In this document: positions 491 through 62,236 of the stretch, in pieces
Position numbering within the stretch: the stretch's first letter is position 1
How the letters are laid out: each line of letters begins with the position of its first letter
Assembly: GCA_046116545.1 (NCBI GenBank)
Contig: CP175956.1
Location: 641,734-705,733 of the forward strand
Direction of reading: 5' to 3'
DNA length: 64,000 bases
DNA from: Candidatus Moraniibacteriota bacterium
GTDB taxonomy: Bacteria; Patescibacteriota; Minisyncoccia; Moranbacterales; GCA-2747515
Made by a program: the position numbers and the translations under genes
The notes under the pieces: model-generated
What the model was told of the DNA's origin: nothing
The model's database searches: none
What the model saw: only the letters and a program-made list of their open reading frames with translations

Positions 491-600
491 TCCAGTCTCT
501 TTTTATTTGTCAAAATTTGTTGGCCCTATGGGATGAGGTTCGAACGGTTTTAAATTCAGTTTTGTAGTAGTATTCAAGACGTTTACTTGACAACTATACT
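491..600 (+). repeat. intergenic repeat module copy A (core 517-545 GTTGGCCCTATGGGATGAGGTTCGAAC plus conserved flanks)
   Basis: Near-identical to 1408-1515 and reverse complement of 47980-48090; 24-nt core shared with three further minus-strand copies; weak -35 TTGACA at 587-592. Confidence 0.85.
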
Positions 601-750
601 AAAATATAATAAGATTAAAAATCAAAATAGTTCCTTAAATTTAATGAAGTAGGAGTAAAAATGTAAATATTGTAATAACTCCAGATACATAATATGTAAA
701 GTCCAAATTTTAATGGATAAAAATCAATCAATATACAGGAGGAACATCTA

Positions 751-1407: not shown

Positions 1408-1515
1408 ACAGATTGATTTTTAATTTGCAAAAATTAGTTGGCCCTATGAGATTAGGTTCGAACGCTTTTAAATTCAGTTTTGAAGTAGAATTTAAGGTTA
1501 TTAGATTGACATTTA
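1408..1515 (+). repeat. intergenic repeat module copy B with embedded promoter-like TTGACA(1506-1511)-17-TAAAGT
   Basis: Aligns along about 110 nt with copies A and C; core at 1434-1463. Confidence 0.85.
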
Positions 1516-1579
1516 GGATGAAATATGATAAAGTTACGTGTCCAAAATGTTTTTTAATTTAATGAAATAGGAGGTAACA

Positions 1580-2593: not shown

Positions 2594-4030
2594 ATGGAAA
2601 TTATTATCAATAGGCAATATGGTAAATTAATTGCAAACCCAAGTACGAAAATAAAGTTCGATAATGTGGGCTATTATTCTGTTGTAGGTTTAAATAATAG
2701 TGGTAAGTCTTCTTTTTTACAATTCATATGTACTATTAAAGGCAATGTATTTTATTTGCCGGTAGAAAGATTGACTTTTGAGCAAAGTAGAAATGCACAA
2801 ATTGTAGATCTTAATCGGTGGATGCCTACTGTAAGAGCACAGATGCGAGGTGGACCAGTTAGTAGTACTCAATTTTTGCATGAAAGCGGAGAAATGGGTA
2901 CTCAGCTTAAAAATTTGATGCAGGCTATGTGGGATGAATTGGGTGATAGAGAAATGATTCGTGGTCAAGTTGCAAAAGATTGCAAAAGTTTACTGGAATC
3001 TGAGCCAGATACTCAAGGAAAAATTATTCAACTAATTGACCAAGATGAGGAGTCTCTTCCTTTTGCTCAGTTTGGATCTGGTTTTCGGGCATTATTACCA
3101 ATAATAATGGCTGTTAATTTAGATACTTATCCTGTGATATTAATTGATGAACCTGAACTTTCACTTGAGCCACGACTTCAAAAAAAAATAAAGAATTATT
3201 TGATAAGGAAGGCTCAAGAAAATAATAAATTAATTATTGTTGCTACACACTCTCATATTTTTCTTAATAAAAAAATTGTGCATATAGTTGGCCCAGAGGA
3301 GGTTAATAATGAAGATTCCTATATTGCAGAGAATATTATAGATATAGATGATAGGGGAGTAGTAACACAAGGTACACTAAAAGAAGATTTACCTGGATTA
3401 GTGTTTAATATGTTAGGTTCAAGTCCTTCAGATATTTTATTGCCAGACTCTATTATTATATGTGAAGGCTCAAGTGATCAAGTTTTTTTAGAAAAAATAC
3501 TTAATCTTAAAAACATTGATAATGTGGGAGTACATTTTGCAAGTGGTTTAGAAAAAATTCCATTAGCAGCTGAAGCAATTAAGCAAATGCTTAAGCCGGT
3601 TGGTGGGTACATGGAGATATATAAGCCAGTAATTTGTGCTTTATTTGATCGACCACAGTCAGACAAAAGAATCTTTATAGATAAAGTAGAGGAGCATATT
3701 GAATCAGATAATGATGGCAGGGTTGTGGTATTGGATAATAATGATTATACAGAACTTGAGTTTTGTTATCCTAAAGATTTAGTTATGAGATTGTGTGGTT
3801 CAGATTTTGATATCAAAAAATGGCTTGAAGATTGGAAGACGGCAAACAATAGGGAGCGGAATGAAGTATCTGTTAATGCAGGAAGTTTGGGTGAAGTAAC
3901 AAAGAGAAAATTTGCTCAAAAAGTATCAGATGAATTAACTAAAGAGCATTTGGAGAAAGCGAATGATGGTTTACAACAAATTATTTTATTGGTTGAGAAA
4001 GCAGAGTCTGTGCAAGAATTTTGGTCTTAG
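2594..4030 (+). CDS. OLD-family ATP-dependent endonuclease (ABC-type ATPase + Toprim), class 1-like
   Basis: Walker A GLNNSGKSS, signature-like FGSGFRALL, Walker B VILIDEPELSLEP, H-loop ATHSH; C-terminal Toprim-like IIICEGSSDQ and VVLDNND. Confidence 0.7.
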   Translation: MEIIINRQYGKLIANPSTKIKFDNVGYYSVVGLNNSGKSSFLQFICTIKGNVFYLPVERLTFEQSRNAQIVDLNRWMPTVRAQMRGGPVSSTQFLHESGEMGTQLKNLMQAMWDELGDREMIRGQVAKDCKSLLESEPDTQGKIIQLIDQDEESLPFAQFGSGFRALLPIIMAVNLDTYPVILIDEPELSLEPRLQKKIKNYLIRKAQENNKLIIVATHSHIFLNKKIVHIVGPEEVNNEDSYIAENIIDIDDRGVVTQGTLKEDLPGLVFNMLGSSPSDILLPDSIIICEGSSDQVFLEKILNLKNIDNVGVHFASGLEKIPLAAEAIKQMLKPVGGYMEIYKPVICALFDRPQSDKRIFIDKVEEHIESDNDGRVVVLDNNDYTELEFCYPKDLVMRLCGSDFDIKKWLEDWKTANNRERNEVSVNAGSLGEVTKRKFAQKVSDELTKEHLEKANDGLQQIILLVEKAESVQEFWS

Positions 4031-4426: not shown

Positions 4427-4456
4427 AAGGGGGCAGGTTCTTGTTGTATTTTTTGA

Positions 4457-4485
4457 GATTGCTTCGTCGTACCTCCTCGCAAAGA
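4457..4485 (+). repeat. 29-nt exact dispersed repeat gattgcttcgtcgtacctcctcgcaaaga (second copy 62208-62236)
   Basis: Identical 29-mer at two distant intergenic sites. Confidence 0.8.
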
Positions 4486-4625: not shown

Positions 4626-5327
4626 ATGCATAGGTTATATGATGAGTTAAAGCAATATTCTTTAGATGATGCTATAGATTTTGAAAAGTCTGATAGGCAG
4701 TTTTTAGCTTTGGAGAAGTTGCATGATAATAAGTTATTTGATGATGTGAATTATTTATTTTTAACTATTGCTAATGCGTTGGTGTGTTACCAGTTGTCAG
4801 GGAAGGGTGAAGATTATTGGGAAGAGTTTGGTGTGGCATTGGAGGGTCAGAGGATTGATGATTTTTCTGATATAGAGATGTTTTTTGAAGATTTTTTACC
4901 AGCATCAAAAAATAATAAAAGATTTGTAAATATAAAATTAAAGAGAATCCAGAAATTAGAGAAGTTTTATAATGAGTTTTTGCAAAATGCTGAAATTTAT
5001 TATGCAGACATGAACAAATTAGTTCATGATTTGTCTAATATCATGAATCAAAAATCAGATGCAAAAACTATTGTTTTTTCTATAAAAATGTTCTCTTATT
5101 CTGCTAGAAATGTTTTTGGGTATTTAGAATATTTTCCTAAAGATATGATGATCCCAATTGATAGCAGATTAGAAAATTTATATAAAAAATATAATACTGA
5201 TATTGATCATATATCAAAAAAAGATATTCAAGAGTTCTATATGAATTTAGCTAAAAAATTAAATATCCAGCCTTTACATTTAGACTCTATCTTATGGGTG
5301 AATTATGATGAATTAATGAATGTATAA
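4626..5327 (+). CDS. putative N-glycosylase/DNA lyase (archaeal-type 8-oxoguanine glycosylase AGOG-like)
   Basis: 233 aa helical protein; resemblance to AGOG/HhH-GPD-like proteins is by overall pattern only. Confidence 0.35.
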   Translation: MHRLYDELKQYSLDDAIDFEKSDRQFLALEKLHDNKLFDDVNYLFLTIANALVCYQLSGKGEDYWEEFGVALEGQRIDDFSDIEMFFEDFLPASKNNKRFVNIKLKRIQKLEKFYNEFLQNAEIYYADMNKLVHDLSNIMNQKSDAKTIVFSIKMFSYSARNVFGYLEYFPKDMMIPIDSRLENLYKKYNTDIDHISKKDIQEFYMNLAKKLNIQPLHLDSILWVNYDELMNV

Positions 5328-11472: not shown

Positions 11473-11563
11473 GTATAAGTCAATATATAATAGATTATCC
11501 TGAGTGAAAAGTCAATATAGAAAAGATGTTTAGTTACTTTAATTTTTGTGGTATACTATATAC

Positions 11564-41528: not shown

Positions 41529-41882
41529 TTAGTTAACCTTCTTGAAGTTTACATTATACATTGGTTCGTATAAGTTATCATATGCATCACGAACCTCAAC
41601 TGTCTCACCATCCATCATAGTTGATAGGGAAATATCAGACATCATTTCTTGTAATGATTTTGATTCTCCTTTAAGTTCATCAAGTTTTTCCCAACGCATT
41701 CCTAGATCTCTTTGTGCGCTTAATTCATGTTGTTTTTTTGTTTCTCTCATAACATTCATCTTTTCAATCAATTCTTGGTATTCAGCATCTTGAGCTAAAA
41801 CATCTTTATATTCTTTGCGAATTTCTTTCATTTCTTTTTTAGTGATTTGAAATTCACTAAAGACTTCTTGTACATCTTTCAT
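41529..41882 (-). CDS. hypothetical coiled-coil protein
   Basis: 117 aa, charged helical. Confidence 0.4.
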   Translation of the reverse strand: MKDVQEVFSEFQITKKEMKEIRKEYKDVLAQDAEYQELIEKMNVMRETKKQHELSAQRDLGMRWEKLDELKGESKSLQEMMSDISLSTMMDGETVEVRDAYDNLYEPMYNVNFKKVN

Positions 41883-43275
41883 ATGTTTTTTTGTTTAATT
41901 ATTTTACGAACACAAAATCTATTATACCATACAATATCACTAAATAATAAACTTCAATTATAAAAACATTAAAGCGTGGGGAAGAGGTCTATAAGATAGT
42001 AGGTGTTGAGTATGTCCTAAATATAAAATAGTTAAAAACATAACTTTGAATCATTTTAGAATACAATGGATACTAGTCTAATACTATAGATATTAAATAT
42101 ATGTGGTATTTTTTTATCAAAATTAAAAGTGTAATAGATAAATATTTTTATGTCGCACAATATTTTAGTATATAAAGTTCATTGGGGAAGAGTTGTATTT
42201 GTAAGTATGCCTTTTATCAATCATTTTTCACTACTAATGCAGTATAAATTTATACTCATATATCATAGGATTCTAAACCATTATTAGTTAACTTTACATA
42301 AACTATAAATCATTTTTATTTTTAAAAAATATTTTATTATTAAGTTTGAATAAAAAATTATAATAAATATTAGCTAAATTAAAATCTAATTCAAAAAGAA
42401 ATGAATATGTATGTACATATGTATTATTTTATAATGTATCTATTTAGTGCTTAATTTGATAATTAGTAGCACTAAATACGCAAGTGACAGATTGACTGGT
42501 GTGTTTGTAAGAAAAAAGTAATACCTATATACCACTAATTTTTTACAAAACGTCTAAGGAGATTTCATGTATACGTTTTGAATAAAAAAGTAATACGTAA
42601 GTACCACTGAAATTGTATATTTTGCAGAGTTAAAAACTAACTAAGTTGTATAAACTCAAATTAACTATTTATAAAACTTCCATAGCATATCTGGGATTAA
42701 AAATTTTATAAATAATTGGATAAAAAACATTTTTAAAATACAAAATAATTTATAAATTATTTAAAATTTAATTTATTAAAATATAGATTTTAAGCTAAAA
42801 TTCATTATTTATCATAAGTAAGATAGTATATAGATCTCCAAAAACTAGAAATATTATATATTTTTGTTTAAAAGGTACTTTTTTGGCTTAAATAAAGGGT
42901 TTTTAATGATGGTATGTCGCATAAGATACATTGTGCGACATAGAATATATCATGAATTCATACCATTTAACCTAGTTCCTTGAATAAATTAGCTTGCTAC
43001 TGATACCTCTAAAAATCGCATTTGACTAACTTTTTAACTTAAAACCATCCATTATACTATTATATACTGGATGGTTTATGTATTTTTATTCTGATTGTTT
43101 ATGCAATCTCTGGGACATTCTTTTTGCTAATCCCATAATTGCAGGACTTAAGGTTCTAATCGAACCATCCGGCATCAGTACTTCAGGTTTTTTAATGCCT
43201 ACAAGTTTACGATTTAATAATCTGCGATGACCTAAGTTTTTTTCGTTATGAAATGCATAACCTCTCCCCTACTTT
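41883..43275. other. 1.4-kb ORF-free AT-rich region with internal direct and inverted repeats
   Basis: No ORF of 60 aa or more on any frame. Direct repeat AAAAAGTAATACSTAWRTACCACT at 42510 and 42587. TGGGGAAGAGKT repeat at 41979 and 42184. ATGTCGCAYAA motif at 42150, 42914 and 42928. Perfect 10-bp inverted repeat at 43043-43079. Confidence 0.6.
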
Positions 43276-43698
43276 TTACAGCATCATTTTAAATACATTA
43301 GTGTCATTTTTTTCGAAACCTTTTTGTTGGTAAAGTTGTATAGCTGCTTTCCTGGCACTATTACTAGTTAATTCTAAGCGACATAACTTCAACTTTTTAG
43401 CTTCTGATATCAAATAATCAATCATTGCACTACCTATCCCCTGTCGCAGATAAGATTTGTCAACAATAACGTCTTCAATAGTACCGACACTGCCTTGACT
43501 GGGAACCAATCGCACAGTAAGTGCACAAAAAGATATGATTTTACCAGAATCTTTTACTACAAAACAAATACAATGATCATCATAAACACATTGCCTCAGA
43601 TAATCTTTGGTAACGCAGTTACGTGTTAATTGCAAAAATAGTTTTTGAACATCTAAAAGGTTATCTTTTACAGCTAACCTTTTAACAATAATATCCAT
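43276..43698 (-). CDS. GNAT family N-acetyltransferase
   Basis: RQGIGSAMIDYLISEAKKLKL...ELTSNSARKAAIQLYQQKGF motif A/B pattern. Confidence 0.75.
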   Translation of the reverse strand: MDIIVKRLAVKDNLLDVQKLFLQLTRNCVTKDYLRQCVYDDHCICFVVKDSGKIISFCALTVRLVPSQGSVGTIEDVIVDKSYLRQGIGSAMIDYLISEAKKLKLCRLELTSNSARKAAIQLYQQKGFEKNDTNVFKMML

Positions 43699-44845: not shown

Positions 44846-44972
44846 ATAACATAATTAATTATTTATAACACACGTCCATTGACAATATCAAATTCTTTAG
44901 CTATAATATCATAGTATAAAAATTTATGGAAGACTTTGCGGTCTTTCCCTTTAATATATTAACTTTTAAACT

Positions 44973-47230: not shown

Positions 47231-47257
47231 TTGATATAACTTATATGTAATTGTATA

Positions 47258-47284
47258 TTGTCATTCCTGCGCAGGCAGGAATCT
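47258..47284 (-). repeat. 5'-proximal hairpin element (family copy 2): AGATTCCTGC-ctgc-GCAGGAATGACAA on the minus strand
   Basis: Same architecture as 4558-4584 with a compensatory C/T:G/A stem change; 27-53 nt upstream of the helicase start codon. Confidence 0.7.
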
Positions 47285-47464
47285 TATACAACAACATCTT
47301 CAATAATTAACCATATAACTATACCACGAATCCAAATCAAAGGTCCATCTCTTCAGTAATTACTATCACGTTCGAATCCTATTGCCCCAACTTTTTTTAA
47401 ACAAACAAAAAACCCACCGAAGCAGATTTTCTGCTGGCAGGTTAATATGAATTGACTACATATC

Positions 47465-47920
47465 CTACAGATTTCCGCAACCAGGACATTTTCCATTGGC
47501 TGACTGCATATGTTCAATCGATCCATGAATTTCACATTCAGGTTCTGATACTTTATTATTTGGTGGTGTATACCGACAAGAGTAATATTCCACAGAAAAT
47601 GGTGGACTTAGTGCCTCAATTTCTTTAATTGCTTGTGCCTCATCATAGAAATCTCCAGCTCTTTGCTTCAACAAAACATCAGCCACTTCTCCATCCTTGG
47701 CAAGATTTCTTGCCTCTTCAGTAAGCTCAACAATAACCTCAGCAGTTGGGTCAACATATTCATCAACTGTTCCATCTTTCTTTTTTTCATAGACAGTAAT
47801 AACAGCATCCGATGACTCAATGGCAATCCCAAAATTAAGGATTGGTAAAATTTTACTCATAAAAAATTTTTCAATTTTACCATTCATCTCAGAACTTCCG
47901 CCCTTCAAAATAACTTTCAT
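47465..47920 (-). CDS. hypothetical protein with C-terminal CPGC zinc-ribbon
   Basis: 151 aa; AGGAGG RBS; transcribed from the promoter embedded in repeat copy C. Confidence 0.4.
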   Translation of the reverse strand: MKVILKGGSSEMNGKIEKFFMSKILPILNFGIAIESSDAVITVYEKKKDGTVDEYVDPTAEVIVELTEEARNLAKDGEVADVLLKQRAGDFYDEAQAIKEIEALSPPFSVEYYSCRYTPPNNKVSEPECEIHGSIEHMQSANGKCPGCGNL

Positions 47921-47979
47921 CAGTTTTTCCTCCTATACTTATTTATTTGACTCGAAATGAGTGTTTGTTAATGTAACTA

Positions 47980-48090
47980 ACAATTATACCTTAAATTCAC
48001 TAATATGTCAATCTCTTCTCAAGACCTTAAATTCTAATTCAAAGCTGAATTCAATACCGTTCGAACTTCGTCCCATAGGGCCAACAAATA
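47980..48090 (-). repeat. intergenic repeat module copy C with embedded consensus promoter (TTGACA 48006-48011, 17-nt spacer, TATAAT 47983-47988, minus strand)
   Basis: Reverse complement aligns along about 110 nt with copies A and B; core at 48040-48087. Confidence 0.85.
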
Positions 48091-48110
48091 AAACATGTCT
48101 TTTGTCAAGG

Positions 48111-48845
48111 TCATTTATAATTTTTTTCAGTAACTAGCAGGCCTGTATCATACATATGATTTTTATCATTTGCCCCATAAACAGATTCTTCTATTAATTC
48201 AAAAGTATCATAATCGACATCAGTCATAATACTATTTCCATAGATAATATTTGTATTGTCTTTATAATAACCATGGCCAATTTTTTCAAATGAATTTGGG
48301 TCTACATTCTCAACAATCTTTTGATAATAAAAAACCTTATCTTTATCTCTTGCGTATCCACAACAAAAAGACACCATCTCGAAAGAAGCATAATCTGCAT
48401 CAACTTCAAGACCTTTATAAAATATCTTTGAAGCATCTTTAGCATAATATCCTTTTAATGCTCTGAATGTCAAAGGATTAGCATTTATCAATATATTATT
48501 GTAATAAACCGTGTCTTTGTCTGCAAAATATCCATAACTACCAATTTCTCGAAATGTTTTTGGATCCAATCCTTCAAATGTTTTCATTGTAAACTTACTT
48601 CCACTCGAATTTACATTGCCTACACAAATTCGATCTTTTAAAATTTTAAATTGAGGGCCTTTTGCTGCTGCCTGAACAGAATAGCAGCGATCAAATATTT
48701 TACCAATAAAATCTCGAGTGCTGTATAAATCGTTTATTGCTTTATGAGGAAGATATTTTAAATTAATAAAAAACAATGTTATTAATAAAAAAATAGCCAA
48801 AAATAAAACAAATAGAACCCAAAATAAATATCTAACTTTTCTCAT
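48111..48845 (-). CDS. DKNYY-repeat family protein with N-terminal TM anchor
   Basis: Repeated DKD(K/T)VYY...NVDP(N/K)SF modules (DKNYY domain). Confidence 0.7.
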   Translation of the reverse strand: MRKVRYLFWVLFVLFLAIFLLITLFFINLKYLPHKAINDLYSTRDFIGKIFDRCYSVQAAAKGPQFKILKDRICVGNVNSSGSKFTMKTFEGLDPKTFREIGSYGYFADKDTVYYNNILINANPLTFRALKGYYAKDASKIFYKGLEVDADYASFEMVSFCCGYARDKDKVFYYQKIVENVDPNSFEKIGHGYYKDNTNIIYGNSIMTDVDYDTFELIEESVYGANDKNHMYDTGLLVTEKNYK

Positions 48846-48877
48846 AAAATAATTATACCAAAAATTGCCAGAATGAA

Positions 48878-49390
48878 CTATTTATTGCAATAAAAGTGTT
48901 CGAACTTCATCCCATAGGGCCAACAATTTTTATTAAAAATCTCTATAGCGGCATAAACAAATATCCGATCTTTTTCCTTTGCAGCTTCCGAGAGAAATTT
49001 GTAAGGCAACTGATGTTGTTGTTCTGCTCTACTCATATTCCTACTTAACCAATCTTCATGTACCAAGTGTGAAACTATTTCTACAAATTTATCATTGAAT
49101 GAACCACTATTATGACTTACTCTCAAAACCTCATCAAAAGCCACCTTGCTTCCATGCCATCTCTCATTTTTCCAATCTAAAGGTAAGTCACTATAACAAA
49201 GATTAGCAAGATCTACCTGATTGGTACCATTTTTTTTAATCCAATTAGAATCAAGTGTTGCCTTTATTCTTGTTCCGTTATTTTTTTCTTTGTATATCAC
49301 CTTAAATTTTTCGTGTACATTATCAGCAACAGTTATAATCAATCTTTCATAATCAGAGTCTTTGTGTTTATTCAAGACTTCCTTACTCAT
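48878..49390 (-). CDS. hypothetical protein (C-terminus encoded by repeat core copy D)
   Basis: 170 aa; last 12 codons ...WPYGMKFEHFYCNK are read through the repeat core. Confidence 0.4.
   Translation of the reverse strand: MSKEVLNKHKDSDYERLIITVADNVHEKFKVIYKEKNNGTRIKATLDSNWIKKNGTNQVDLANLCYSDLPLDWKNERWHGSKVAFDEVLRVSHNSGSFNDKFVEIVSHLVHEDWLSRNMSRAEQQHQLPYKFLSEAAKEKDRIFVYAAIEIFNKNCWPYGMKFEHFYCNK
48898..48926 (-). repeat. repeat core copy D (truncated module), followed by extended -10 TGgTATAAT 6 nt before the ATG of the downstream gene
   Basis: GTTGGCCCTATGGGATGAAGTTCGAAC on the minus strand; TATAAT at 48852-48857 (minus). Confidence 0.8.
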
Positions 49391-49463
49391 GCAACAAAAA
49401 AATAATTTTTACCTATTTAGTATATCAAAACTTGCCCAAAAACACTATCTATTCTAATAAAAC

Positions 49464-49489
49464 CGTTCGAACCTCGTCCCACAGGGCCA
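49464..49489 (-). repeat. repeat core copy E
   Basis: GTGGCCCTGTGGGACGAGGTTCGAAC on the minus strand, 3' of gene 49583-50122. Confidence 0.8.
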
Positions 49490-49582
49490 CTAGTTTTTTG
49501 AAAAATAAAGGGGTTAGAAAATATATTTTTCTAACCCCTGCTATTCTATTGTTCCTATGTTATTTTACAACAATTCTCTATT

Positions 49583-50122
49583 CTATATTTTTCCTGTTAG
49601 GAGGTAGAAGAGTCTTGAGATAAGTTCTCTTGGAATAAATATCCACGCATTTCTCGTCCATATTTGATCTGACAAATGATCATATGGAACTTTTTTAGTG
49701 GCTACAACCAAGGTATCAAGTCCTAACTTTTTAGCTGTCATTACACAACGCCAGCAATGCTGTGGGTGTGCAAGAATAATTGATCTACGCCACCCATTTT
49801 TTTCACAAATATCTTTTGATTGAGCAATCACTTCATAAGTATCAAGATATTTACCTTTTTCCTGATGTTTCCTGACAACTCCCGCCTTTGAAACATCATT
49901 GATACAATCAGCAATTTCCCATTGTAAAATTAATGGTACACAGTATTTTTTATGCACCTCTTTGGCAATATCTGCCAATTCTTCGTTACTTTTACCAGGA
50001 TCATCATTTGGTCGGTTACCAAAAGACTGTCCAATCAATACATCAGCTTTTTTCAAACAATCTTCAGAATCACTGGGCATATGCCACACAAAGAAACATT
50101 CAATCATTTTTTTAATAAACAT
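49583..50122 (-). CDS. DUF218 (YdcF/SanA-like) family protein
   Basis: ...VLIGQSFG... and ILAHPQHCWRC resembling the DUF218 conserved SxYHxxR region; strong RBS AGGAGG. Confidence 0.45.
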   Translation of the reverse strand: MFIKKMIECFFVWHMPSDSEDCLKKADVLIGQSFGNRPNDDPGKSNEELADIAKEVHKKYCVPLILQWEIADCINDVSKAGVVRKHQEKGKYLDTYEVIAQSKDICEKNGWRRSIILAHPQHCWRCVMTAKKLGLDTLVVATKKVPYDHLSDQIWTRNAWIFIPRELISRLFYLLTGKI

Positions 50123-50245
50123 AGCAAGCCTCCTTGATTGTTTATGAAGTTTTTTCTTATGCTATTAAATCAATAATAACTTGAAATATTAACATATTTT
50201 CATGATTTTGTAAAGACTACATGACTTTATTTCCTACATAAAATC

Positions 50246-50272
50246 GTTCGAACCTCCTCCCATAGGACCCAC
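50246..50272 (-). repeat. repeat core copy F
   Basis: GTGGGTCCTATGGGAGGAGGTTCGAAC on the minus strand; preceded by terminator hairpin 50283-50312 of gene 50328-50573. Confidence 0.8.
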
Positions 50273-50327
50273 AAATTTAAAACTGTCTATCTTAATTTTA
50301 AGATAGACAGTTTTTTACATTATTTAC

Positions 50328-50573
50328 TTAAGTATCACTAGTAGATGACTTAGTGCTTCCTATAGCTTTGCTAATTTTAGGATCCTCACCTTTTTTTGAC
50401 GTATAGGCTATATTTATAGTTGCCGTCCATTTCAGAGATTTTTTTCTATCAGTATCTTTTAATAAAATGTTGTGCCATTTTTCTTTTTCATCTTCTTTTC
50501 CATACAAAAAACCTAAATAAAGCATTATGCCAGTAACTATCAGAAAAAAGATTATGCCAATACCTATATACAT
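50328..50573 (-). CDS. small membrane protein
   Basis: 81 aa, N-terminal TM helix. Confidence 0.4.
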   Translation of the reverse strand: MYIGIGIIFFLIVTGIMLYLGFLYGKEDEKEKWHNILLKDTDRKKSLKWTATINIAYTSKKGEDPKISKAIGSTKSSTSDT

Positions 50574-58423: not shown

Positions 58424-60883
58424 TTACTTTCTCACCTCAACATCAATTTCTTTTTCAAGAGAACCTATTATGTTTTCTATTTTCTCATCAACATTTTTGG
58501 ATTTCAAAGTTTTCTCATTATCTCCAAAAATTATATGAAATGCCATGGAACGCTCACCAGTTTCTTTATTTGTGTATAGATCAAACAAATCAACATCTTT
58601 TACGAGTTCACCTCCAGCATCATATATGATTCTCTCTACATCACCAACACAAACTCTATCCCCTACCATCATAGATAAATCTCTAGATACAAAAGGGAAC
58701 TTGGCAAGTGGTTCAAAGAAGTTTTCTGATTTCGTTTCAGCTAGCATCACATCAACATTCAACTCACAAACAACTGCACGAGTTTTCTTAAGTCCAAAAT
58801 ATTTACTTGCTTTTTTATCAGTCTCACCCATCCAACCTATCACTTTACCACTTTGCATTTTTATCATCGCTCGTCTTGAAGGATGCAAATTTGGCAAATG
58901 TTCTTTATTTTCATCAAACTCACTATCAAAATAATAATCACCGATATTAATTCTATCAAATAATGTTTCCAACATACCCTTCATTTCAAAGAATTGTGTT
59001 CCGTCATTATCTTTAGAAGCAACGACAGCACCTAAAACAAGTTTTTCATCAGGCAACACAGCGTCAACTGGATCATAAATACGACCAATTTCAAATATTT
59101 GCACTCTATCAAAATAACTAAAGTTCTTTTTTGTAAAATTTAACAAATTTGGCATAAGTGACCTACGCATGATAGCTTGCTCTGGATTCATAGGATTCAT
59201 AAGCGTTATATGATTTTCATCATTCAGTCCTACAGCACGAGCATCATCAAATCCATAAAATGAATAGCTCTTCACTTCATCAAATCCTCCATATACAAAA
59301 ACATCTTTCAATGTTCTTTCAAAGAATCTCTGCTCATTTCTAACAGGTGTCTGTACAGATTCTTTAAGTGGTTTTGATTCTATTTTATCATAACCATACA
59401 TTCTTCCAATTTCTTCTATCAAGTCCTCCTGAGTTTGCAAATCAATCCTTATTGTTGGAATTGTACATATCAATACTTCCCCCTCTCCCTCTGGGAGAGG
59501 GTTGGGGTGAGGGCCATCACATTCAACATTAAGTCTTTCTAAAATACTTTTCATCTCATCAGCTGCTATATCAACACCCAACATTTTAATGACTTTTTTT
59601 GTGTCTAAATTCACACTCCATTTCTCAACTGGCTCAGGATATACATCTGTTACACCTGCCACTGTACCACCTGCCAATTCAATAAATAATTCCACTGCCT
59701 TAGTAGCTGCGATACTTGCTAAATTTGGATCAATGTTTCGTTCAAACCTATAAGCCGCATCTGTTTGCAAGTTATACTTACGTTGAGTTAATCGTACAGA
59801 ACTAGAATCAAAGGAAGCAGCTTCAAGTATGATGTCTTTTGTATCACATGAAATTGCACTACTAAGTCCACCCATAACACCCGCTAACGCAATAGCATCG
59901 CCTTCTCCTGTATTTTCGCCATCAGTTATAACTATATCAGCACTATTTAATTCCACTTCCTGATTATCTAATAACATTATCTTTTCTCCATCACGAGCCT
60001 GTCGTACTTCTATTTTTTTAATATTAGCTGCATCGAAAGCATGTAATGGTTGACCGGTCTCAAGCATTACATAATTTGTAATATCAACAATATTGTTTTT
60101 GGGAGTAATGTCAGAAGACTGCAATCGAGCTTTCATCCAATCAGGCGACTCTTTGATTTCAATATCATCAATCTTTACACCAATATATCTATTACATTTA
60201 GGAGTATCTATAGACACATTCAAAACCCCCTCTCCCTCTGGGAGAGGGCTGGGGTGAGGGCTTTGTTCAGCAGTGTCTTCAAGTGCTTGCATTTCATTAG
60301 CAACACCTGTATAACTCAAACAATCATGTCCACGATTTGGTAAGATATCCAAATCAATTATACTGTCATTCAACTTTACGTACTTAGCAAATTCTTCTCC
60401 AACAGGAGCATCAATAGGCAAAACTATAATGCCATCATGCTCATTACCAATTCCCAATTCATCCTCCGCACAAATCATCCCATTTGATTCTACTCCACGA
60501 ATCTCATTTTTTTTAATTTCAAAAACTTCTGGATCATGTGTAGGAGTTTTTATTATTGGTCGTATTCTTGCACCCACAAGTGCAACAGGAACCTTCTGTC
60601 CAACTTCCAAATTTGGCGCACCACAAACAATCTGTAAACTTCCTCTCCCTTTGGGAGAGGATTGAGGTGAGGGGTCCACATTCACAGTAGCAACGCTAAG
60701 CCTATCAGCATCAGGATGTTTTTCCTTTGTCATCACCTCACCAATAACAACATTATCCAAACCATCAGATAAATCCTCAACACCTTCAACCTCAAAACTA
60801 TGAGCCATAAATAACTCAGCCATTTCATCAACATTCTTTTTTGTCCCACTCAATTCCTTGAGCCAATTGTAACTAAATTTCAT
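58424..60883 (-). CDS. pheT: phenylalanyl-tRNA synthetase beta subunit carrying three in-frame GC-rich palindromic insertions
   Basis: 819 aa; tRNA-binding, B3/B4, B5 and FDX-ACB domains recognisable; insertions at 59478-59515, 60225-60262 and 60641-60678. Confidence 0.9.
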   Translation of the reverse strand: MKFSYNWLKELSGTKKNVDEMAELFMAHSFEVEGVEDLSDGLDNVVIGEVMTKEKHPDADRLSVATVNVDPSPQSSPKGRGSLQIVCGAPNLEVGQKVPVALVGARIRPIIKTPTHDPEVFEIKKNEIRGVESNGMICAEDELGIGNEHDGIIVLPIDAPVGEEFAKYVKLNDSIIDLDILPNRGHDCLSYTGVANEMQALEDTAEQSPHPSPLPEGEGVLNVSIDTPKCNRYIGVKIDDIEIKESPDWMKARLQSSDITPKNNIVDITNYVMLETGQPLHAFDAANIKKIEVRQARDGEKIMLLDNQEVELNSADIVITDGENTGEGDAIALAGVMGGLSSAISCDTKDIILEAASFDSSSVRLTQRKYNLQTDAAYRFERNIDPNLASIAATKAVELFIELAGGTVAGVTDVYPEPVEKWSVNLDTKKVIKMLGVDIAADEMKSILERLNVECDGPHPNPLPEGEGEVLICTIPTIRIDLQTQEDLIEEIGRMYGYDKIESKPLKESVQTPVRNEQRFFERTLKDVFVYGGFDEVKSYSFYGFDDARAVGLNDENHITLMNPMNPEQAIMRRSLMPNLLNFTKKNFSYFDRVQIFEIGRIYDPVDAVLPDEKLVLGAVVASKDNDGTQFFEMKGMLETLFDRINIGDYYFDSEFDENKEHLPNLHPSRRAMIKMQSGKVIGWMGETDKKASKYFGLKKTRAVVCELNVDVMLAETKSENFFEPLAKFPFVSRDLSMMVGDRVCVGDVERIIYDAGGELVKDVDLFDLYTNKETGERSMAFHIIFGDNEKTLKSKNVDEKIENIIGSLEKEIDVEVRK
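59478..59515. repeat. GC-rich palindromic element copy (CCCCCTCTCCCTCTGGGAGAGGGTTGGGGTGAGGGCC) inside pheT
   Basis: Encodes ...GPHPNPLPEGEGEVL... in frame. Confidence 0.8.
60225..60262. repeat. GC-rich palindromic element copy inside pheT
   Basis: AAAACCCCCTCTCCCTCTGGGAGAGGGCTGGGGTGAGGGC; encodes ...SPHPSPLPEGEGVL... Confidence 0.8.
60641..60678. repeat. GC-rich palindromic element copy (diverged) inside pheT
   Basis: CTTCCTCTCCCTTTGGGAGAGGATTGAGGTGAGGGGTCC; encodes ...DPSPQSSPKGRGSLQ... Confidence 0.7.
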
Positions 60884-62136: not shown

Positions 62137-62236
62137 CTTTGCGAGCAGACGTGATATTTTGTGTATTTTGCGAAGCAATCTCTACAAATTTATTAGCACA
62201 CTTTCAAGATTGCTTCGTCGTACCTCCTCGCAAAGA
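62137..62236. repeat. nested inverted-repeat structure (outer TCTTTGCGAG/CTCGCAAAGA, inner GCGAAGCAATC/GATTGCTTCG) containing the 29-nt dispersed repeat
   Basis: Two concentric 10-bp stems; 3' arm identical to 4457-4485. Confidence 0.7.

Follow-up and report, generated by a model that had tools for sequence, protein, structure and literature searches.

Short intergenic repeats of modular build, such as the Correia elements of Neisseria and the BOX elements of pneumococci, can harbour promoter hexamers that are functional. Integron cassette arrays consist of co-oriented units, each with a single open reading frame (ORF), that are split by a repeated site; their content differs among relatives, and some of these arrays also lack an adjacent recombinase. 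In tandem islands at tRNA genes (Islander-type islands with T-loop or 3′-end sublocations and accretion of cis-mobilisable elements), direct repeats are co-oriented with the tRNA and lie on its 3′ side. The tycheposon islands of Prochlorococcus belong to this type, in which displaced 3′ fragments of the tRNA mark the island boundaries (bioRxiv 10.1101/2020.12.28.424599). Here, we compare with these systems a repeat family from a stretch of 64,000 nucleotides (nt) of a Candidatus Moraniibacteriota genome (contig CP175956.1, positions 641,734 to 705,733), referred to below as the window. Its copies may be att-like junctions of single-gene cassettes inserted at a site resembling the 3′ end of tRNA-Gln, a reading to which, from sequence comparison, we assign a probability of about 0.5.

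Of these systems, the arrays are closest to tRNA-gene islands, which they resemble in repeats that are co-oriented with a tRNA gene and placed on its 3′ side, in the similarity that runs from the T-loop into the tRNA flank, in the variable content between conserved genes, and in the presence of pseudo-fragments matching the tRNA in up to 22 of 22 positions. They differ from such islands in that the units are single small genes of 0.4–1.5 kb and not multi-kb segments, an integrase is absent from the arrays and their vicinity, the repeat core differs from the tRNA, arrays also occur far from any tRNA gene, and a conserved promoter-bearing linker follows the junction. With integron cassette arrays they share co-oriented single-ORF units, a repeated site between them and a content that differs among relatives; in contrast to integrons, sequence and not structure is conserved, neither the R″/R′ consensus nor the imperfect palindrome of attC is present, the cassettes carry their own promoters and terminators, and no IntI was found. 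Because of the missing integrase, the divergence of the repeat from the tRNA, the lack of attC structure and the cassettes' own promoters, we place the arrays in neither family. From the Correia and BOX elements the repeat is set apart by the absence of terminal inverted repeats, the low copy number, the arrangement in tandem arrays and the likeness to a tRNA 3′ end. Other candidates were rejected: integron attC, as the core contains no R″ (RYYYAAC) or R′ (GTTRRRY) boxes and its fold is negligible, and dif/Xer sites, sigma54 promoters, extracytoplasmic function (ECF) promoters and LexA-type boxes, for which inspection by eye found no consensus match.

Repeat anatomy, array content and similarity to tRNA-Gln

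The pattern search yielded six core copies in the window, A and B on the plus strand and C, D, E and F on the minus strand (Table 1), and copy F thus has to be added to the five copies counted in the original prediction. Four further copies lie just left of the window start (contig JGI Ga0675941_000552), making 10 copies in two arrays within a genome region of ~78 kb. This region, out of a genome of 1.286 Mb, begins ~7 kb left of the window and reaches to about +71 kb, and up to 7 kb past the right window end no further core copies were found. The left array, in plus orientation, comprises six copies and begins directly after the recQ stop codon; the right array has minus orientation.

Scans of public genomes and metagenomes revealed ~30 distinct copies in other Candidatus Moraniibacteriota assemblies, from which the anatomy of the repeat was drawn (individual loci are given below by L numbers). 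The core of 28 nt, TTGGCCCTATGGGAYGARGTTCGAACNN, is followed by TTTTA and preceded by a semi-conserved pre-core of ~20 nt (TTTATTTGTCAAAATTTG / TTTATTTGYCAAAATTWG). The order of elements in a unit is core, linker, promoter, ORF, terminator, pre-core, with one small transcription unit per copy. In most cases, the terminator of a co-directional gene precedes the copy and a promoter follows it; the distance from terminator to core is ~11–23 nt in most copies and longer in copy B. The linkers are of two main types, with a few belonging to neither. In the long type (TTTTRAATTCAGTTTTGGAGTAGAATTYAAG), an inverted repeat TTRAATTC-N12-GAATTYAA is followed by TTGACA at +40 and a TAnnnT box 17 nt further; TTGACA stands exactly 40 nt after the core in eight out of nine complete copies, ahead of six or more ORFs that are unrelated to each other and come from four or more genomes, and the spacers differ. 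In the short type, the palindrome TTTATTGCAATAAA is followed by a TG-extended −10 box ~38–40 nt after the core, with no −35 hexamer.

The core is found almost only in Moraniibacteriota assemblies, where the copies are few and clustered: the scan of species-representative genomes gave one to six exact core matches per assembly, and one fragmented assembly contains at least 10 copies over four contigs. The contig L019, with a clearly higher G+C content, carries the cores GGCCTTATGGGACGAGGTTCGAC and GACCCTATGGGACGAAGTTCGAAC (640–690 and 1215–1250) directly after terminators, and therefore the element is not confined to low-GC Moraniibacteriota. The exact core sequences had no match in a literature search, and a further search, on Patescibacteria with integrons and attC, brought up nothing relevant. 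In the window, the 170-aa (amino acid) ORF of cassette E (48878–49390, minus strand) has no terminator and runs through the pre-core and core of copy D (48878–48930), so that its last residues are encoded by the repeat.

The arrays occupy probable insertion hotspots, i.e., the region between pyrG and PIF1, the region after recQ, and the region between ftsX and tRNA-Gln, and their content between conserved flanking genes is variable. The genes pyrG and PIF1 are adjacent in L032, with nothing between them (PIF1 being 80% identical), and are separated by a single 54-aa ORF in L034. The window has five small genes at this place, namely an 81-aa gene and cassettes F, E, D, and C, and L010 has three other small genes there, together with one core. 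L002 is colinear with the window over 39.5–47.4 kb, apart from 1.8 kb of additional DNA in the terminus gap (see below), which has a full core at one boundary and a partial core (TTGGTGGGATG) at the other. The core-to-pre-core block of cassette F, 757 nt long, recurs at 90% identity in L006, where it has a different context. The arrays also have distinctive ends: no pre-core stands before the first copy (L029 4135, right behind the recQ stop, and L002 2129), and the last cassette ends in a pre-core and a tRNA-like remnant. This layout (a first copy without pre-core, a last one with a remnant, and variable content between them) is what is expected from serial insertion of core-to-pre-core units by recombination at a site similar to the tRNA-Gln 3′ end.

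The link to tRNA-Gln comes from both the position and the sequence of the repeat. The compared loci contain tRNA genes for Gln, Thr, and Gly only, and in four independent ones (L001, L003, L006, and L013) a convergent tRNA-Gln(CTG) stands at the end of the array, which lies on the 3′ side of this tRNA, the repeats being co-oriented with it. The core and the ~20 nt ahead of it are similar to the tRNA-Gln(CTG) 3′ end and its downstream flank when these are taken as their reverse complement, with the similarity beginning at the T-loop. Read in the tRNA sense, the tRNA-Gln end is GGTTCGAATCCTACCAGCCCAAC, followed by aatttttgacaaattaaaaag and a hairpin, and the reverse complement of the module is CGTTCGAACCTCATCCCATAGGGCCAAC, followed by aaattttgacaaataaaaag and a hairpin. 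The core GTTGG-CCCTATGGGAT-GAGGT-TCGAAC aligns with the tRNA GTTGG-GCTGGTAGGAT-----TCGAAC at 17/22 with a 5-nt insert, and the core is therefore not a simple displaced tRNA fragment. A search for the pre-core motif with up to four mismatches in 211 kb returned 14 matches, eight of them before cores, three before tRNA-Gln, and three random-looking.

The end of the right array shows the same relation. After the 151-aa gene of cassette C, a terminator, a pre-core, and the pseudo-fragment GTTGGGGCAATAGGATTCGAAC follow in this order. Intermediate forms occur: compared with tRNA-Gln, the pseudo-fragment scores 22/22 in L033 and 21/22 in L002, both at the orthologous position, 19/22 in L009, and 18/22 in the window; the form at the orthologous position in L010 is core-like and lacks the 5-nt insert.

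A T-loop-like TTCGAAC and a GCCA in the module's reverse complement, along with the 8-bp hairpin that the long linker can form, might suggest that the module is or encodes a structured RNA (a small RNA, a leader or a tRNA-like molecule). This is exceedingly improbable, given the position of the copies between terminator and promoter, the absence of a T-stem partner, and the lack of any tRNA or Rfam match: Rfam 15 produced no matches at the gathering threshold in the whole window, and only noise at E ≤ 10 in 47850–50400. Nor did folding favor an RNA element, as the RNAalifold consensus of 11 long-type copies reached −4 kcal/mol with no covariation and an unfavourable covariation term. Compensatory change in the linker hairpin was rejected as well, the single variable pair being A–U in three copies, G–C in two, G–U in two, and A–C in four.

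Possible origin of the arrays and arguments against it

The repeat is probably a junction at the level of DNA, the main part of which is similar to the tRNA-Gln 3′ end and is not a promoter. We propose that small cassettes, circular or borne by a donor, would enter in succession through site-specific recombination, the target being a site that resembles the tRNA-Gln 3′ end, with a recombinase encoded elsewhere in the genome acting in trans. Every insertion would leave one more copy of the junction, and the conserved linkers would be arm sequences of the recombination site, of a long and a short type, that double as carriers of the cassette promoter.

A number of observations weigh against this proposal. 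Pfam tables of the encoded proteins list no integrase or recombinase from about −7 to +71 kb, none occurs beside the arrays in the other loci examined, and none is among the cassette proteins compared with Pfam, most of which have no family there. No circular form, within-species pair of empty and occupied sites, or target duplication was observed; the comparisons of occupied and empty loci are between species, and at these distances gene order can also be reshuffled by means other than site-specific recombination. A scan of viral contigs for the core pattern gave no match. As for tRNA-Gln, the core differs from its 3′ end and has a consensus of its own, ARAGORN found no tRNA gene in the window, and the left array has no recognisable terminal remnant. 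Finally, the conservation of the linker and the −35 hexamer at a fixed 40 nt before unrelated ORFs could equally mean a promoter-bearing unit or a regulatory constraint.

The arrangement of the two arrays bears on a further alternative. The region 41882–43276 is likely the replication terminus, as here the cumulative GC skew peaks and gene orientation changes from plus to minus around a 1.4-kb AT-rich non-coding gap, which also contains two 43-nt direct repeats (42503–42545 and 42575–42617) conserved in L002 (3205–3296). With the left array in plus and the right array in minus orientation, the copies would point toward the terminus (skew peak and orientation switch at ~41.5–43.3 kb) from both sides, as would polar replication-fork barriers of the Ter type, and the L002 copy inside the terminus gap likewise points toward the convergence point. 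We consider such a role very improbable: the orientation of copies is fully confounded with gene direction, there is one copy per small gene, alongside promoter modules, whole arrays are absent in the close relatives L032 and L034, other arrays lie beside tRNA-Gln after ftsX, and no Tus- or RTP-like protein was identified.

Promoters of the cassettes and of other genes

The original prediction started from a perfect promoter on the minus strand next to copy C, and the exact TTGACA-17-TATAAT, followed by AGGAGG and the ATG at 47920, is indeed present (Table 1; the sequence spanning it is gagaagagaTTGACAtattagtgaatttaaggTATAATtgttag). It has the same consensus hexamers and 17-nt spacer as canonical sigma70 promoters and the standard place ahead of the Shine–Dalgarno sequence and ATG, the leader being ~55 nt long; compared by sequence alone, there is no difference between the two. 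Thus, TTGACA-17-TATAAT at 48011–47983 is a well-supported, strong candidate for the housekeeping-sigma (sigma70) promoter of the 151-aa gene.

The same promoter had been described as embedded inside the repeat module, which is not the case for copy C: its similarity to copies A and B stops at 48017, 5 nt ahead of the −35 hexamer, and the distance from core to −35 is 45 nt versus the 40 nt typical of the long type, so that the hexamers adjoin the repeated sequence and do not lie inside it. Moreover, orthologues of the 151-aa gene keep ATTGACA-16/17-TATAnT, with ATTGACA and TATAnT invariant in four orthologous upstream regions, and in two of these regions, those of L026 and L028, the core is missing, yet ATTGACA-17-TATAGT/TATATT stands at the equivalent place. 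Because repeat-free orthologues keep the promoter, the similarity of copy C ends before the −35, and the spacing is 45 nt, we consider that the predicted promoter belongs to the gene and is inherited with it, the repeat merely lying upstream and not supplying it. The leader has the motif ACAAAYACTCATTT in common in the window, L013, and L026. A motif of this leader, ACAAACACTCATTTCGAGT (47945–47975, minus strand), kept in L013 and L026, can fold into a small hairpin, and the leader may have a regulatory function.

The idea that the repeat delivers a promoter to whatever gene lies downstream fails for copy C for the above reasons and fares better for the long-type class. Copies A and B share the promoter architecture, as proposed, with TTGACA-17-TAAGAT and TTGACA-17-TAAAGT at the expected places, and for the class as a whole, to judge by the −35 hexamer at 40 nt in eight out of nine complete copies and the unrelated ORFs behind it, a constant region including the promoter is a fair description. 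Downstream of promoter A, the leader, Shine–Dalgarno sequence and start codon of B are found again at ~616–700, here with TAA immediately behind the ATG. The 5′ end of the gene at 1580 is present here as a decayed duplicate, and the actual gene begins at 751, preceded by a Shine–Dalgarno sequence of its own.

The fixed position of TTGACA, the TAnnnT box 17 nt on, with differing spacers and unrelated ORFs, and the palindrome with its TG-extended −10 ~38–40 nt after the core shared by short-type copies would all be accounted for if the ~110-nt module were a repeated, possibly mobile element supplying an outward sigma70 promoter, similarly to the Correia elements of Neisseria. We consider this explanation unlikely, since promoter C has orthologues at the same gene that are free of the repeat and its spacing is 45 nt instead of 40 nt, the repeat search and alignments revealed no terminal inverted repeats or target duplications, the copies are few and clustered and not dispersed, the core decays or gets interrupted while the promoter is retained, one copy has no co-oriented gene, and the similarity to tRNA-Gln and the end structures of the arrays are left unexplained.

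The fate of the core also bears on its possible role as an operator or an activator site of a regulon of small accessory genes, with the palindromic linkers as further protein-binding sites. In the L006 orthologue of cassette F the core is decayed (18/26), and the remainder of the 757-nt block retains its 90% identity; in L003 (6240–6300) a GC-rich hairpin of 45 nt (GCCCGCCTGCAACGCTTGTGCATATGCACTGCGGGCAGGGGGC) interrupts the core, and the following gene is otherwise 90% identical. Hence, in two out of four orthologous comparisons the core is destroyed with the promoter and gene intact, and by this comparison the core is not needed for the predicted downstream promoter. Copy L029 4625 faces a convergent gene and has no promoter, and the distance from core to −35 varies strongly across copies (6, 12, 29, 40, 42, 45, and ~72 nt), the terminator distance being comparatively steady. 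For these reasons, i.e., decay or splitting of the core with the promoter intact, the copy at a convergent gene, and the variable distance to −35, an operator or UP-like role is disfavoured. Some observations do agree with binding of a regulator: the short-type palindrome is centred ~42 nt upstream of the predicted start, which is the position of a class II activator; short-type promoters have no −35 hexamer; the 28-nt sequence is strongly conserved across assemblies of differing G+C content, L019 included; and its orientation relative to the downstream gene is always the same. On the other hand, identity over 28 nt is far above what is usual for operators, the downstream genes have no common functional theme, and neither the relation to tRNA-Gln nor the insertion polymorphism is explained, and we regard this role as decidedly doubtful. 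From the L003 case it also appears that small GC-rich hairpin elements insert into the AT-rich genome.

As the G+C content of the window is 32%, the promoter matches had to be checked against chance expectation, which was done with 100 first-order Markov simulations of the 64-kb window. There are two matches of 12/12 in the window, both upstream of genes, versus a simulated mean of 0.15 and a maximum of one; the second perfect TTGACA-17-TATAAT, at 44879–44907 (plus strand), precedes the gene of ribosomal protein L27 (44973–45251). At the level of at least 11/12, nine matches were observed and 4.6 ± 2.0 expected, seven out of nine being upstream of a co-oriented gene. By these predicted promoters, the organism clearly uses canonical sigma70 promoters.

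The TG-extended −10 boxes claimed for copies D and E were both found (TGGTATAAT and TGATATACT). The claim of leaderless geometry at 48845 and at the acs-like gene also agrees with the sequence: in both genes the −10 box ends 6 nt before the ATG (the 7 nt given earlier for the acs-like gene is corrected accordingly) and there is no Shine–Dalgarno sequence. With TGnTATAmT ending 6 nt before the ATG in cassette D and the acs-like gene, the start is therefore expected on the A of the ATG. Two more genes, at 4626 and 15055, have TG-extended −10 boxes (TGTTATAAT and TGTTACAAT) ending 6–7 nt before the ATG, again with no Shine–Dalgarno sequence, and a recognisable Shine–Dalgarno sequence is present in only ~20 out of 67 window genes. 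Probably, some mRNAs of this organism are leaderless.

Other features and implications

Table 1. Repeat copies, predicted promoters and associated features of the window, by position.
Feature	Position	Strand	Remarks
Copy A core	520..547	+	Pre-core motif ATTTGTCAAAATTTG at 505-519
Copy A promoter, TTGACA-17-TAAGAT	587..615 (-35 587-592, -10 610-615)	+	Followed by dead start (ATG-TAA near 650) homologous to copy B leader
Copy B core	1438..1465	+	
Copy B promoter, TTGACA-17-TAAAGT	1506..1534 (-35 1506-1511, -10 1529-1534)	+	105-aa membrane protein gene 1580-1897
Extended -10 box TGGTATACT	11549..11557	+	6 nt ahead of ATG 11564, acs-like gene; leaderless geometry; unrelated to repeat
tRNA-Gln 3′-end pseudo-fragment GTTGGGGCAATAGGATTCGAAC	47370..47391	-	18/22 to reverse complement of tRNA-Gln; closes right array just upstream of PIF1 promoter
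Terminator hairpin behind 151-aa gene (CCTGCCAGCAGAAAATCTGCTTCGGTGGG and T run)	47413..47441	-	Same hairpin family precedes tRNA-Gln in L001, L006
151-aa gene (cassette C), conserved Parcubacteria hypothetical	47465..47920	-	89 homologues; no Pfam family
Shine–Dalgarno sequence AGGAGG	47929..47934	-	Ahead of ATG 47920-47918
-10 hexamer TATAAT, promoter C	47983..47988	-	17-nt spacer; predicted transcription start ~47976; TATAnT invariant in orthologues
-35 hexamer TTGACA, promoter C	48006..48011	-	No change among orthologous upstream regions
Copy C long-type linker	48012..48056	-	Inverted repeat TTGAATTC-N12-GAATTTAA; 5 extra nt before -35
Copy C core TTGGCCCTATGGGACGAAGTTCGAACGG	48057..48084	-	
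Extended -10 box TGGTATAAT, cassette D	48852..48860	-	6 nt ahead of ATG 48845, DKNYY gene (48111-48845); leaderless geometry
Copy D core	48896..48923	-	Short-type linker TTTTATTGCAATAAATAG next; upstream 170-aa ORF reads through core
Extended -10 box TGATATACT, cassette E	49419..49427	-	170-aa gene 48878-49390
Copy E core	49463..49490	-	Terminator 49509-49539 precedes
Cassette F promoter, TTTACA-17-TAATAT, TG-extended	50186..50214	-	179-aa gene 49583-50122; conserved in L006
Copy F core	50244..50271	-	First junction of right array

The surroundings of the left array look like a defence-island neighbourhood: the genes directly upstream of it encode a reverse transcriptase of 343 aa (RVT_1) and a RecQ helicase (L029 905–4130, ~3.3–6.5 kb left of the window start), and an AAA_15/AAA_21 ATPase gene (window 2594–4030) comes after it. 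The window also contains GC-rich repeats of other kinds. Three in-frame 36-nt GC-rich palindromic repeats (CCCCCTCTCCCTCTGGGAGAGGGTTGGGGTGAGGGC) in pheT, at 59479–59514, 60226–60261, and 60639–60674, add ~12 residues each (GPHPNPLPEGEGE, SPHPSPLPEGEGV, and DPSPQSSPKGRGS) and resemble the in-frame palindromic elements of Rickettsia. The repeat AAGATTGCTTCGTCGTACCTCCTCGCAAAGA occurs at 4451–4485 and 62202–62236, as well as upstream of PIF1 in L002 and L033, and a related hairpin, GATTCCTGCCTGCGCAGGAATGAC, is located in the PIF1 leader of the window (~47255–47280).

Extending the proposal beyond this genome, one may tentatively envisage, with rather low confidence, an integron-like gene-cassette platform in some Moraniibacteriota, with serial insertion of single-gene cassettes at a site of ~45 nt derived from the tRNA-Gln 3′ end and flank, one of two standard promoter-bearing arms on each cassette, a recombinase acting in trans, and variable arrays built up at a few hotspots that include the terminus region.

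Promoter C is of little consequence alone, apart from illustrating that a bacterium of the Candidate Phyla Radiation (CPR) has textbook sigma70 promoters. CPR genomes are tiny and little is known on how they acquire genes, which makes the repeat a more useful lead than the promoter. If its copies are indeed junctions of inserted cassettes, they would represent a concrete, testable route of gene gain via self-contained one-gene units at sites that are empty in relatives, and would serve as a sequence tag by which to locate variable regions in metagenome assemblies of CPR bacteria, such repeats being exactly the places where these assemblies tend to break up.

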